A DNA stretch of 64,000 nt, taken from the NCBI GenBank assembly GCA_000004695.1, contig CM000152.2, positions 4,032,001 through 4,096,000 on the forward strand. Direction: 5' to 3'. Of this stretch, positions 14,834 through 62,606 are shown piece by piece. Numbering within the stretch: position 1 is the stretch's first letter; each line of letters opens with the position of its first letter. Below the pieces are notes generated by a model that worked only from the letters and a program-made list of their open reading frames with translations, had not been told where the DNA came from and made no database searches. Made by a program: the position numbers and the translations under genes. This stretch comes from Dictyostelium discoideum (lineage: Eukaryota).

Positions 14834-17800
14834 TTATTTATTTATTATTAGATGAACTAAATATTTTTGATTTAAAACTCTTTTATTTTTTGGTGGAAAA
14901 TCAATAGAATCAATTAGTAAATTTGACAATTGAAAATTTGAAGAATCTATTGATTTTAAAACCATACCACATAAAAAATTCAATTGAAATAATGATGATT
15001 GATTTGTTTTTGTTCTCACTTTTAATAAAGATTGACTATTTTTATTAGATGATAGAATGTTTTTGAAAATTTGGGTGAATCCTTTTCCAGAAGCTACACA
15101 AAGACAATTATAAAGATGATTGATTGTATTATCATTTAAATTTTCAATAAAATAATTAATAAGTAATTCAAGATAATAACTTGAACATATATTATATAAA
15201 TAAGATTCTTTAGTAAAATTTGGGAAATATGTTGAACTAAAAATTTCAGGTATTTTATCAAAAAGATAAAAAATATCCTCAAACCTATCTAAATAATAAA
15301 GACAAATAAATAACATTCTGGGTGAAATTATAAAATCAAATGATTTTGTTTCACCAATAATAAATTGTCCAACTTCTTCACTATTTGTTGTTGATATTGT
15401 TGAGGTGAGTGGAATAAAATCATCTCTACCATAATATAAATGTGGAATATTGAAATTACCTTTAACTTGATATAACTTTGGTTCAATTGATTCTTTTGAA
15501 ATATTATTAAAAATTAATTTGATAAGGTTTGGAATTTTATTTGGTGATGGAGCACCATATATAATATCAGAAAATCTAAATGGTTGTTTAAATATTTCAT
15601 TTGGTAAAAAGAAATTGATCACAACTTCATTACCATTTTCTAAAGACCAACCAAATATATTTAACAAAGTGGTATTACAATAATAACCAGAATCAAAAAA
15701 AAATGAATATAATAAAGGTTTTGAAATTGCTCTTTTTAATTGATCCAATAATATATTTACATTATATTTTTTTTCATTATTTTTATTTCCATTTGTGAAC
15801 CAATTACTATATTTTACAAAATATAATTGTAACTTTTTACCAATACTTTCCATTATTTTTTCAATATGATCAATAATATTAACATGATTATTATTCCAAT
15901 TTTGATTTTGATCATCAAATAAAGTAGTTTCATTTCTATAATTTTCAAAAAAAAAGTCGACAATTTCATTTTTATTAATATATTGAAAATTGATTGATAT
16001 AATATAAGAGATACTTGGAAATTGTGTTTTTGAGTTTTGAGCAAGTTGTAACTTTTTTATTGTTTTAATTAGATGGTCAATTAATTCTGTATCGTTAGTT
16101 GAAAATACAACTCTACAAAATGAATTAAAACTTGTAAAATTAAAATTAGATCCAATATTTTGAAATGAGACTCCATTTTCAATATCTAAAATTTTTGATA
16201 CTAATTCTAATCTTTGATTTCTTTCAAGTTGTTGATCAATTAAAATACTTTTAAAAAATATTAAACAATCATCATATTTCTTAATAAAAAATCCACAAAA
16301 TATTTCATATAATTGACTAACATTCATTTTTTTTTTAAAATATAAATAATAATGAAATGGTCTCATTAAATTTCTATCATGTTTTCCTTCTTCAATAATT
16401 TTTAAAAATAAATAAATTGATTTATAATATTTTTTAATAATATCTTTTAAATCACTGCAATTATTATTGTTTGTTATTAATATTGGAGTGGTGGTAGTGG
16501 TTTTTGTTTGATTCAATAGATTTTTAATTGTCGAATTTAATTGATCATCAGTAAAATGAGAGAATTGAATTTCATTTAATTCTAATATTAATTGATCTAA
16601 TTTTTCAATATAATCCAATATTTGTAGTTGTCGTCCCTCTCGTTGTTGTTGTTGTTGTTGTTGTTGTTGTTGTTGTTGTTGTTGTTGTTGTTGTTGTTGT
16701 TGTTGTTGTTGTTGTTGCTGTTGTTGTTGTTGTTGTTGTTGTTGTTGTTGTTGTTGTTGTTGTTGTTGTTGTTGTTGTTGTTGTTGTTGTTGTTGTTGTT
16801 GTTGTTGTTGTTGTTGTTCTTGTTCTTGTTGTTCTTGTTGTTGTTGTTGTTGTTGTTGTTGTTGTTGTTGTTCTTGTTGTTGTTCTTCTTGTTGTTGTTG
16901 TTGTTGTTGTTCTTGTTCTTGTTGTTGTTCTTGTTGTTGTTGTTCTTGTTGTTGTTGTTGTTCTTGTTGTTGTTGTTGTTGTTGTTGTTGTTGTTGTTGT
17001 TGTTGTTGTTGTTGTTCTTGTTCTTGTTGTTGTTGTTTTTGTTCTTGTTGTTTTTGTTGTTCTTGTTGTTGTTGTTGTTGTTGTTGTTGTTGTTGTTGTT
17101 GTTGTTGTTGTTGTTGTTGATGTATTTCTCGTATTTCTTTAAATTTTGTAGGATCGACTAATAATTTATATGATTTTATAAGTCTTTTAAATTTATAATC
17201 AAATGATAGACTTTCTGATAAATCAATATTAGAAAATCGTTGTTTAATATGTGATGTTGGAATAGCATTAATTGATTTTAAATAATTGTAAATTTTTAAA
17301 TTATTATATGAAAATACATTAAAGAATGATGGATTAATATGCATTTCTATACTTTTTTTTAAAACATCTGAATTTATTTTAAAAAATTTAATAAATTGAT
17401 CTAATGCTACTAAATTTTCATTTAAAATCATTCTTTGAATCCATAGATCAATATTTTCATCAAATTGGAAAATCAACGATTTTGTTGATTGCATTGTTGT
17501 TGTTGTTGATGATGATGAAGAGAATGTTGAAAATAATGTAGTATAAAATGAAATTGTTTCATTATCTTTTTTTTTTAATGTTTTAATAATATTTACAATA
17601 TCATTTACACTTCTGATTATTTGATGATTAATATTTCCTTTAATATTATCTTTTATTATTTCTAATGAATTACTATAACTTTTTAAAAAGTTTTCATTTA
17701 TACCAATTAAATCATGATAACCAAATTGTTTACTTTTAAAATTTGAAAATATATTTTTAAAAATGATCATATTTCTAAAAGCTTTCCAAAAATAAATTTC

Positions 17801-18127
17801 AAGTTGATCAACATCTTTAATTAGTAATACATATTGTTTTTGTTGAGGTTGTTTTTGTTGAAGTTGTGGAGGTTGATTGGTTGTACTATTTGTTAAATCA
17901 TTTTTAACTTTTTTTGATAAAAAATAACCTTCAATTCTTTTATAAACTTCTTGTTTTTTCCCATTATTTGGTAAACCTAATGATTTTGCAATTGTTTGTA
18001 ATTCTTTGCTTCTTATTGAATCATAATCAACATCTTTAAACTTTTTGTATGTTAATAAACCATCATTATCATCATCATTATCATTTTCTTGATTTTCAAT
18101 TTCTTTTCTTTTATTATTATTAACCAT
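14834..18127 (-). CDS. SAP-domain protein, tandem-family copy 1 (1097 aa), containing a poly-Gln expansion of roughly 165 codons
   Basis: This is an intronless ORF. The N-terminus LTYKKFKDVDYDSIRSKELQTIAKSLGLPNNGKKQEVYKRIEGYF fits the SAP motif. A CAA/CAG tract at about 16640-17130, interspersed with GAA/AAA, is translated as Q with scattered E/K. The protein is about 85% similar to copy 2 outside that tract. Confidence 0.7.
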   Translation of the reverse strand: MVNNNKRKEIENQENDNDDDNDGLLTYKKFKDVDYDSIRSKELQTIAKSLGLPNNGKKQEVYKRIEGYFLSKKVKNDLTNSTTNQPPQLQQKQPQQKQYVLLIKDVDQLEIYFWKAFRNMIIFKNIFSNFKSKQFGYHDLIGINENFLKSYSNSLEIIKDNIKGNINHQIIRSVNDIVNIIKTLKKKDNETISFYTTLFSTFSSSSSTTTTMQSTKSLIFQFDENIDLWIQRMILNENLVALDQFIKFFKINSDVLKKSIEMHINPSFFNVFSYNNLKIYNYLKSINAIPTSHIKQRFSNIDLSESLSFDYKFKRLIKSYKLLVDPTKFKEIREIHQQQQQQQQQQQQQQQQQQQEQQKQQEQKQQQQEQEQQQQQQQQQQQQQQQQQEQQQQQEQQQQEQQQEQEQQQQQQQEEQQQEQQQQQQQQQQQQEQQEQEQQQQQQQQQQQQQQQQQQQQQQQQQQQQQQQQQQQQQQQQQQQQQQQQQQQQQQQQQQREGRQLQILDYIEKLDQLILELNEIQFSHFTDDQLNSTIKNLLNQTKTTTTTPILITNNNNCSDLKDIIKKYYKSIYLFLKIIEEGKHDRNLMRPFHYYLYFKKKMNVSQLYEIFCGFFIKKYDDCLIFFKSILIDQQLERNQRLELVSKILDIENGVSFQNIGSNFNFTSFNSFCRVVFSTNDTELIDHLIKTIKKLQLAQNSKTQFPSISYIISINFQYINKNEIVDFFFENYRNETTLFDDQNQNWNNNHVNIIDHIEKIMESIGKKLQLYFVKYSNWFTNGNKNNEKKYNVNILLDQLKRAISKPLLYSFFFDSGYYCNTTLLNIFGWSLENGNEVVINFFLPNEIFKQPFRFSDIIYGAPSPNKIPNLIKLIFNNISKESIEPKLYQVKGNFNIPHLYYGRDDFIPLTSTISTTNSEEVGQFIIGETKSFDFIISPRMLFICLYYLDRFEDIFYLFDKIPEIFSSTYFPNFTKESYLYNICSSYYLELLINYFIENLNDNTINHLYNCLCVASGKGFTQIFKNILSSNKNSQSLLKVRTKTNQSSLFQLNFLCGMVLKSIDSSNFQLSNLLIDSIDFPPKNKRVLNQKYLVHLIINK
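16640..17130 (-). repeat. Coding (CAA/CAG)n poly-Gln microsatellite inside SAP-family copy 1
   Basis: Nearly pure TTG/CTG triplets on the plus strand, which are CAA/CAG on the coding strand. The antisense poly-Leu ORF 16628-17161 in the ORF track is an artefact of this tract. Confidence 0.9.
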
Positions 18128-61522: not shown

Positions 61523-61646
61523 ATAATTAAAATAATAATAATAAAAAATTAATAAAAAATTAATAAAAAATAAAGAAAAAAAAAAAAAAATTAAAAAATT
61601 GTGTATTAAACTAATTAAATTTTATTTATTATTATTTTTATTATTT

Positions 61647-62606
61647 TTATTGTTTTAAAACTTCACAATACGAAATTGAATGTTTAGAGTGAAAGTAACC
61701 TGCGGCACTGGTGAAACCAAAATATGCTTTTTTTAAACCAACTAAATCAGGAACATGAATATTATTTAATAATTGAACGGAATCAACTGAAATTGATAAA
61801 CTTGTTTCATTATGATTAAAACTAATTTCTACATTATGTTGGAATCCATCTTTCATTGAAAATGATGGTACTGCTGAAGCTATGGAAAATTGATTTGATG
61901 ATGAAAGATTTCCTCTTTTGTTGTTGGTACCTTGAATTGAAATATGATTATCATTTTGTTCATCTTCATTTCTATATGTGTCAAATTCAACTGCAACACA
62001 TCCATCACCTTTTGCAATATCATGATATCCAAGTGTTGTACCACCAGAATAACGAGTTGAACATTGTGTATCACTTATACTTTGAATTACAAATGCAAAT
62101 CCATCTGCACCTACATTATCTCCTTGTGGTTTTGATATTTTGAATGTAAATTTAATCAATAAATCTGAATCCATTGGTAATTTAATTTTTGAAAATACTG
62201 ATCCAACTTGATTATGACTATCATTTGTTAAAACAAATTTATTTGATATAATTTCTTTTTCTTCATTATTATTATTATTATTATTATTATTATTATTATT
62301 ATTATTATTATTATTATTATTATTATTATTATTATCATTATTATTATTATTTAAAGATAAATGTTGTAATGATGGATTAACTCTCATTTTATTTCTTCTA
62401 TAAGGTGAAGGTTTGTCTTGTTTAAATTCTTTTTGAATTTTATGACCTTCGTCATCTTCAAAGAATGCATCTACATTGGTACTACTATTTTTATTATTAA
62501 ATACAAAAAATGAATTATCTATTTTATTTTTTAAGAAAACATTTCTATATACTTTAAAGAATAAATCTTGACTATTATCTTTATTACTGTTGTTATTGTC
62601 GGACAT
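61647..62606 (-). CDS. L-type (legume-like, concanavalin-A fold) lectin-domain protein, copy 1; no signal peptide
   Basis: A 319-aa ORF. Lectin_legB-like motifs are GADGFAFVIQ (ADGLAFFL), GGTTLGY (GGYLGL), VAVEFDTYRNEDEQNDNHISIQ (VAVEFDTF.N..WDP...HIGIDVNS), VEISFNHNETSLSISV and AYFGFTSAAG...HSISYCEV (VRVGFSAATG...HDVLSWSF). A coding (AAT)n poly-Asn tract lies at 62265-62345. The N-terminus DLFFKVYRNVFLKNKI has no hydrophobic signal sequence. Confidence 0.7.
   Translation of the reverse strand: MSDNNNSNKDNSQDLFFKVYRNVFLKNKIDNSFFVFNNKNSSTNVDAFFEDDEGHKIQKEFKQDKPSPYRRNKMRVNPSLQHLSLNNNNNDNNNNNNNNNNNNNNNNNNNNNNNEEKEIISNKFVLTNDSHNQVGSVFSKIKLPMDSDLLIKFTFKISKPQGDNVGADGFAFVIQSISDTQCSTRYSGGTTLGYHDIAKGDGCVAVEFDTYRNEDEQNDNHISIQGTNNKRGNLSSSNQFSIASAVPSFSMKDGFQHNVEISFNHNETSLSISVDSVQLLNNIHVPDLVGLKKAYFGFTSAAGYFHSKHSISYCEVLKQ

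Follow-up and report, generated by a model that had tools for sequence, protein, structure and literature searches.

What does a short peptide shared by otherwise unrelated proteins contribute to its carriers? This question is raised by a 64-kb stretch of Dictyostelium discoideum DNA (contig CM000152.2, positions 4,032,001 to 4,096,000; hereafter the window), in which three gene families share an N-terminal peptide motif, here called the box. The box is found in a three-copy family with a SAP domain, in a single Asn-rich gene and in an L-type lectin gene (lectin 1) that lies beside a second lectin gene (lectin 2). The window has a G+C content of ~21%, and all of its box sites are located on the minus strand (Table 1). 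Its proteins are typical of Dictyostelium, with poly-N, poly-Q and poly-T tracts, and the nearest database relatives of its open reading frames (ORFs) belong to Dictyostelium cf. discoideum, D. discoideum strains, D. citrinum and D. purpureum. We describe the box as a lineage-specific N-terminal module that has so far been found only in the genus Dictyostelium, and we tentatively propose that it docks its carriers to a common partner, for which Skp1 is the best candidate.

The box occurs in three gene families of the window

The box sequences quoted in the original prediction for the SAP family, the Asn-rich gene and lectin 1 are all confirmed at the positions given there. The three SAP-family copies have one 26-residue box peptide in common, which starts ~110-130 residues into the protein. 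The SAP domain (PF02037, residues 34-69) lies N-terminal of the box and is matched by Pfam with 28.4 and 27.4 bits against a gathering cut-off of 23.9. Copy 3 is probably a pseudogene because it contains two in-frame stop codons, one near 25155 and the other near 23866. Copy 1 carries a poly-Q/E tract of ~190 residues that is missing from copy 2. In the Asn-rich protein, for which no Pfam family was matched, a conserved N-terminal region extends to about residue 87.

Lectin 1 is the most compact carrier in the window. It has the box core alone, ~20 residues ahead of the beta-sandwich, and the first strand of the L-type lectin domain follows immediately on the box. The assignment of this domain is supported by a Lectin_L-type_dom match (expectation value (E) 9e-23) and by PF18483, which scores lectin 1 at 81.7 bits and lectin 2 at 103.8 bits (Pfam gathering cut-off 78.3). 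A signal peptide is absent from lectin 1. Lectin 2 had been credited with a weaker version of the motif, but it holds a mere remnant, which we do not count as an instance. The lectin 2 protein begins inside the motif (MIEKSNVFLDFFIDRIRIKSSF), so that from the start codon only NVFL…I..SF is retained and the aromatic half, corresponding to helix A described below, is absent. The alignment of the two lectins starts at FFVFNN/FLFNIK, no box model matches lectin 2, and no upstream box exon was detected in the 330 bases available.

The shared box is not a product of amino-acid composition

Can the shared motif be explained by the sequence composition of an AT-rich genome? The loose pattern [FWYLIM][FWY]xx[FWY]RNxx[IVFLM] has five matches in all six frames of the window, and these are the five box sites only. 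By comparison, 0.015-0.05 matches are expected from the composition of the window ORFs, and the maximum in 300 residue shuffles was 1. Because the patterns were composed after the sites were known, leave-one-family-out tests were added. In these tests, position matrices were built with families weighted equally and with the six-frame composition of the window as background, and 38,664 positions were scanned. The omitted site scored 16.3 bits against a best background of 6.2 for the SAP family, 36.3 against 11.5 for the Asn-rich gene and 29.2 against 9.0 for the lectin. In each scan, the site of the omitted family ranked straight after the training sites, with a margin of 10-25 bits. Leave-one-out models in HMMER likewise recovered the Asn-rich site with 24.2 bits and the lectin site with 21.2 bits.

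The description of the families as otherwise unrelated is borne out at the level that can be tested. BLASTP of SAP copy 2 against the Asn-rich protein aligned the motif alone (E 0.039), and hhalign comparison of family against family also aligned only the motif (E 0.0048), the remainder reaching a probability of <=0.4%. The coding DNA of the boxes is no more similar than the peptide demands, and thus the box is a protein-level feature rather than a DNA repeat.

A chance resemblance arising from F-, N-, K- and I-rich composition has some basis, given that the genome has a G+C content of ~21% and that the highest spurious scores with the hidden Markov model (HMM) of the box, about 10 bits, come from the reverse strand at two motif sites. 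However, over 285,000 six-frame residues from 12 loci, the HMM scores split into two groups, one at >=34.6 bits and the other at <=10.0 bits. In addition, the boxes are recovered across families and conserved across species. The box was not found in IMG/VR viral contigs searched with a single exact FFKIWRN-coding pattern, where all 12 of the 12 matches were non-coding noise without the second helix (helix B) of the box. Chance is scarcely conceivable as an explanation in view of these results and of the excess of five matches over the composition-based expectation, and we regard composition-driven resemblance as excluded. A composition-expected frequency would have counted against the original prediction; within the window, the observed frequency lies far above it.

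The box heads FNIP proteins and other unrelated bodies in Dictyostelium

How widely is the box distributed? Searching 1.84 billion representative proteins with a three-motif profile returned 5 matches at E <=1e-3, all of them SAP or lectin orthologues or paralogues; this search did not probe the breadth of the box because the motif is too short to reach significance in so large a set. A word-index homology search with the 51-residue motif alignment gave 4 candidates and no matches, the method being ill-suited to short queries.

FNIP relatives, gathered by a homology search with a synthetic FNIP-repeat query, proved to be the main carriers. The box heads 10 of the 10 Dictyostelium-genus FNIP proteins among the 120 matches listed, which come from D. 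discoideum AX4 (DDB_G0275143), two other strains, D. firmibasis, D. dimigraforme and D. purpureum. Three further neighbouring FNIP genes also carry it, bringing the total to 13 of 13 Dictyostelium-genus FNIP proteins examined from six species or strains. An example of the FNIP box is MDNNELFFKVWRNIIIQNEIFFHLKLYNKH…, and the conserved F lies at residue 6-61 across the FNIP proteins. A further FNIP protein, DDB_G0293774, is included in a published figure with the segment 'NCWRNEIILNKLIFHT' (PMC9485057, Fig. S3).

The relationship between the FNIP boxes and those of the window holds in both directions. A model built without FNIP training sequences recovers nine FNIP N-termini, of which five score 17-24 bits and the other four 7-9 bits, over noise of <=6. 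Conversely, when a FNIP-only HMM is run on 1,211 window segments, its two best scores fall to lectin 1 (20.7 bits) and to the Asn-rich gene (16.3 bits), a result weakened by an alignment that placed FNIP one residue off the register of the other families. Profile-profile comparison with hhalign aligns the window-family boxes with the FNIP boxes at 95% probability (E 4e-8) and the extended region of the helical families with the FNIP boxes at 86% (E 5e-6). The FNIP N-termini, exemplified by DDB_G0275143, for which Pfam annotates only PF05725, share the box, its register and its N-terminal place with the window families, whereas their body is a solenoid of FNIP leucine-rich repeats (LRRs) instead of a lectin, SAP-linked helical or Asn-rich body. 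The two groups also differ in helix B, which reads KNEILFHLRLYNKH in the FNIP version and K(N/R)xI(F/L)(S/N)NF in the window families.

A six-frame scan of ~238 kb around eleven Dictyostelium genes with a corrected 26-column HMM yielded four more carriers beyond the anchor genes, namely three tandem FNIP paralogues and one non-FNIP protein. The latter is a D. dimigraforme protein of 961 residues (locus L006, 12204-15089, minus strand) with the N-terminus EEKLFWKVFRNNYLFKEIFSNFQCLGINRFRYDDIIHISWMLDNQYLSLLKEK and no Pfam family. Its residues 51-121 align with residues 12-87 of the Asn-rich protein (77 residues, BLASTP E 7e-8), and its N-terminus matches the SAP-family boxes with BLASTP E values of 4e-6 and 2e-5, while its body matches neither the Asn-rich nor the SAP family by BLASTP. 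By these alignments, the L006 protein bridges the SAP-type and Asn-type versions of the box.

Taken over all carriers, the box is N-terminal to FNIP LRRs, an L-type lectin or large helical bodies in 21 of 21 distinct proteins (20 tabulated and the L006 protein), and box and body are encoded in one exon in all carriers checked. It precedes at least five unrelated bodies, which are the FNIP/IP22 LRR, the L-type lectin, the SAP-family helical body of ~800 residues, the Asn-rich 895-residue protein and the 961-residue protein. FNIP/IP22 LRRs are by far the commonest carrier in the sample. The proposal of a short portable module on different domain backgrounds therefore stands and extends to the FNIP-LRR family and the 961-residue protein; it was even understated, because the box also defines the N-terminus of the FNIP family.

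Several observations concern the genomic arrangement of the carriers. The window holds three independent non-FNIP carriers (14834-25518, 42835-45522 and 61647-63671) on the same strand, two of them tandemly duplicated. One non-FNIP carrier was found in ~216 kb of sampled flanks, compared with these three in 64 kb, which gives a very rough density. Box-bearing FNIP genes form small tandem clusters, with two and three genes within 7-11 kb (L001, 10001-16548; L010, 10001-21237). The Asn-rich paralogue P0002 of D. citrinum (L007, 10001-12343) starts downstream of the box region, and no box-coding sequence is apparent in the 700 bases upstream of the gene; either the box was lost or the gene model is truncated.

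The box is a constrained element with a predicted two-helix fold

The box has the consensus N-x-x-L-F-[FW]-K-[IV]-[WFY]-R-N-Φ-Φ-[IL]-[KR]-x-x-I-[LF]-x-[HN]-[LF]. Among 20 distinct sequences, F5 is present in all 20, R10 in 18, N11 in 17 and I18 in 19. At position 6 the residue is F or W, and at position 9 it is W, F or Y; hydrophobic residues fill positions 12-14, and K or R predominates at position 15. In most carriers, this core of 23-26 residues opens a longer conserved N-terminal region of ~55-75 residues, and in the helical families the region measures ~75 residues.

The full-length AlphaFold2 (AF2) model of DDB_G0275143, with a mean predicted local distance difference test (pLDDT) score of 84, contains a helix at residues 12-29 that ends in …IFLKIWR, a break at N30 and a second helix at residues 31-48 (LVIRNEILYHLRLYNKHF). 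These helices are followed by a strand, a six-residue helix and then the LRR strands. A cropped model similarly places a helix at 9-18, a break and a helix at 20-37, with pLDDT values of 88-90 over the box. The box is thus predicted to fold into a short helix A (…LFFKIW), a break at R-N in which the Asn is likely to be an N-cap, and a longer amphipathic helix B. A sequence search of the PDB with the box profile returned nothing below E 0.98.

Comparison between species points to constraint on the box. Between SAP copy 2 and its D. purpureum homologue P0007, the box is the most conserved 25-residue stretch, with 60% identity as against 23% overall. The box is also essentially unchanged in the orthologues of the Asn-rich gene (P0001) and of lectin 1 (P0006, from D. 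citrinum), and its conservation in orthologues covers D. cf. discoideum, D. citrinum, D. purpureum, D. firmibasis and D. dimigraforme. These sequence comparisons indicate that the box is under constraint.

Could the box be a generic basic amphipathic helix, such as a calmodulin-binding 1-5-10 motif or a membrane- or lipid-binding helix? Its hydrophobic anchors F5, [WFY]9 and [IL]14 fit a 1-5-10 motif loosely, the Y of lectin 1 at the second anchor falling outside the strict set, its net charge is about +2 to +4, and the FNIP protein CmbB is known to bind calmodulin (PMC7079120). However, the putative calmodulin site of CmbB has been placed within the repeat, at residues 179-198, and not at the N-terminus (PMC7079120). 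Furthermore, the AF2 model packs the helices onto the domain and leaves no free helix, and the near-invariance of F5, R10, N11 and I18 (17-20 of 20) exceeds the specificity that such motifs require. A generic helix is very improbable because the box, with its invariant F, R-N and I, is more specific than such a helix needs to be, and because the putative CmbB site lies in the repeat. A signal peptide, a type 2 peroxisomal targeting signal (PTS2), a mitochondrial presequence, a BC/SOCS box and a DCAF H-box were also dropped as candidates, as the box sequence contains no matching pattern.

The box as a candidate docking element in the place of the F-box

What is the biological function of the box? 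FNIP proteins of other lineages offer a lead. A canonical F-box occupies the position of the box in FNIP proteins of Acytostelium (P0103, P0107), Tieghemostelium (P0033) and giant viruses (P0085, P0062, P0038), and none was found in any Dictyostelium-genus carrier examined. Because the box sits where the FNIP proteins of other organisms have an F-box, it probably docks to a shared partner, such as Skp1. By analogy, the combination of a short N-terminal element with interchangeable binding domains (LRR, lectin or helical) resembles the architecture of a ligase substrate receptor.

An indirect link to Skp1 is suggested by published F-box-like sequences. The box HMM was run on 58 such segments, of which 53 were transcribed from Fig. 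S3 of PMC9485057 and five were added human, yeast and plant segments. Four of the 58, none of them among the five added segments, score 8.6-11.2 bits, and the other segments score <=3.6. The scoring segments belong to DDB_G0293774 and DDB_G0272482 (LRR/FNIP), DDB_G0268782 (LRR+) and DDB_G0294633 (ankyrin). All four proteins fall into the class 'predicted only in Skp1 interactors', and each of them was recovered by co-immunoprecipitation with Skp1 (PMC9485057). The same study aligned helix B of DDB_G0293774 and DDB_G0272482 with helix 1 of the F-box (PMC9485057).

On this basis, we tentatively favour, at somewhat short of an even chance, the reading that the box is a docking box, that is, an F-box surrogate without detectable homology to the F-box, with Skp1 as the best candidate partner. 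In this scheme, the box would perform the job of an F-box and couple variable binding domains to a single common partner. If that partner is Skp1, the carriers would be linked to an SCF-type (Skp1-cullin-F-box) ubiquitin ligase, either as substrate receptors or as proteins whose own turnover is controlled by Skp1.

Several observations weigh against this proposal. With Pfam at E up to 10, no F-box (PF00646 or PF12937) was detected in three window segments and eight FNIP N-termini, whereas canonical FNIP-linked F-boxes do match the Pfam F-box (P0085, E 0.0027; P0103, E 0.12). Alignments of the box with F-box alignments by hhalign reach 0.2-0.7% probability, as against 95% (E 3e-8) in the positive control, in which canonical FNIP-linked F-boxes were compared with a Dictyostelium/human F-box alignment. 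The lectin 1 box is too short for an F-box because it has only ~20 residues before the beta-sandwich. The Skp1 evidence, moreover, comes from co-immunoprecipitation mass spectrometry of FNIP, LRR and ankyrin carriers only and is not validated per protein (PMC9485057). The segments matched by the box HMM are the published truncated ones rather than full-length proteins, and no window gene was placed in the published Skp1 interactome.

Is the box then an F-box by descent that has diverged past recognition, with helix B as F-box helix 1 and R-N in the place of L-P? The hydrophobic spacing that follows R-N, RNxΦΦxxxIΦxxΦ, matches LPxEΦΦxxIΦxxL, and the ~45 residues that separate R-N from the first LRR strand correspond roughly to the length of an F-box. 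The sub-alignments that hhalign finds between box and F-box span just five to seven columns (IWRN with LWKN; neIl-HL with I--yL), and the best of them against FNIP-linked F-boxes (neIl-HL with I--yL, E 0.11, not significant) uses this register, as does the published alignment of DDB_G0293774 and DDB_G0272482 (PMC9485057). However, every statistical homology test is negative while the positive control passed, and intermediate forms were not found. The predicted fold after helix B may also speak against this origin, in that the AF2 model has a strand, a short helix and a strand instead of F-box helices 2 and 3, for which lectin 1 would in any case have no room. Descent from a true F-box is therefore improbable, and we do not class the box as an F-box. 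The box may nevertheless work like an F-box, and the suggestion of a degenerate F-box-like element is accordingly divided: it is plausible as a function, given the F-box at the same FNIP position elsewhere and the four Skp1 co-immunoprecipitated matches, but it finds no support as homology in Pfam, hhalign or the predicted fold.

In overall layout, the box and the F-box (PF00646, PF12937) are alike in being N-terminal to a variable binding domain and in having an amphipathic helix after a two-residue cap. The box differs in that it lacks L-P, has the additional aromatic helix A upstream, shows no HMM or profile-profile similarity to the F-box and is predicted to fold without helices 2 and 3.

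The box could also play a structural or interaction role unrelated to the SCF ligase, whether as a capping or packing hairpin that stabilises the beginning of the next domain, as a helix for dimerisation or as a dock for a partner other than Skp1. AF2 puts the box of the FNIP protein directly against the first LRR units with good confidence, homology to the F-box was not found, and the box is present in only four of ~92 published Skp1 interactors, a number that could simply reflect the abundance of FNIP proteins. On the other hand, a fold-specific cap would not be expected to persist on bodies as different as an LRR solenoid, the beta-sandwich of a lectin and three distinct helical proteins. 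A role of this kind would also leave the positional swap with canonical F-boxes in the FNIP proteins of other lineages unexplained. We consider it quite possible, if less likely than a docking box linked to Skp1.

Beyond the docking of individual carriers, the box might represent a new Dictyostelium-specific docking class of ligase adaptors that is not homologous to the F-box, replaced the F-box in FNIP-LRR proteins and was then copied onto lectin and helical bodies. We regard this evolutionary scenario as unlikely. If it is true, current F-box censuses would have missed a large lineage-specific set of receptors for SCF or other cullin-RING ligases. Published F-box censuses of protists are admittedly incomplete (PMC9485057). 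No description of the box as a family was found in Pfam or in the literature searched, and individual instances have been treated as speculative F-box-like sequences (PMC9485057).

Known systems provide partial parallels for a docking box that acts through Skp1. Lectin 1 would resemble F-box-plus-lectin substrate receptors, of which FBXO2/Fbs1 and the plant F-box-Nictaba proteins are examples, in that a short adaptor box at the N-terminus precedes a cytosolic carbohydrate-binding domain. Both the box and the lectin fold differ, however, and for lectin 1 any binding of sugars or association with a ligase is putative. In poxvirus ankyrin proteins, the truncated F-box-like PRANC domain still recruits Skp1 with a shortened element; PRANC is C-terminal and F-box-like by profile, whereas the Dictyostelium box is neither.

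The FNIP/IP22 family of Dictyostelium is large, and orphan proteins of unknown function are numerous in this genus; the shared box offers one handle on those that carry it, with a single partner to seek, one HMM for annotation and clear point mutants (W, R-N). Should the partner be Skp1, social amoebae would have considerably more SCF receptors than are annotated, among them a cytosolic receptor of the lectin type. With a different partner, the box would define a new interaction module. Either way, a short module has spread over unrelated genes without present-day intron boundaries.

Other features of the window

The box sites and the remaining features of the window are listed in Table 1.

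Table 1. Box sites and other features of the 64-kb window
Feature	Gene	Position	Strand	Basis or remark
Box core, SAP-family copy 1	14834-18127	17726..17803	-	Translation, regular expression, HMM (34.6 bits)
Box core, SAP-family copy 2	19226-22087	21689..21766	-	Translation, regular expression, HMM; peptide equal to copy 1
Box core, SAP-family copy 3 (probable pseudogene)	22498-25518	25015..25092	-	Translation, regular expression, HMM
Box core GEILFWSIWRNIFLKRIILNNFLNKN, residue 11 of the Asn-rich protein (895 residues)	42835-45522	45415..45492	-	Translation, regular expression, HMM
Box core SQDLFFKVYRNVFLKNKIDNSFFVFN, residue 12 of lectin 1	61647-62606	62496..62573	-	Translation, regular expression, HMM
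Degenerate remnant NVFLDFFIDRIRIKSSF, N-terminus of lectin 2	62898-63671	63606..63656	-	Translation; non-scoring
Four tandem ependymin-like genes (PF25544)		47565-48314, 50329-51078, 53896-54645, 56225-56974		92-98% identical; spacing 2.3-3.6 kb
Duplicated pirin-gene pieces among the ependymin-like genes		46245-47227, 49532-49981		
tRNA-Ala(AGC)		35961-36033		
Folliculin homologue with long poly-N inserts		39577-41379	-	PF11704 and PF16692

The tRNA-Ala(AGC) gene is flanked by two ORF fragments, one on the minus strand (35396-35863) and the other on the plus strand (36338-36733). The fragments have no Pfam match and may be remnants of a tRNA-gene-targeted retroelement of the kind represented by the Dictyostelium TRE elements.

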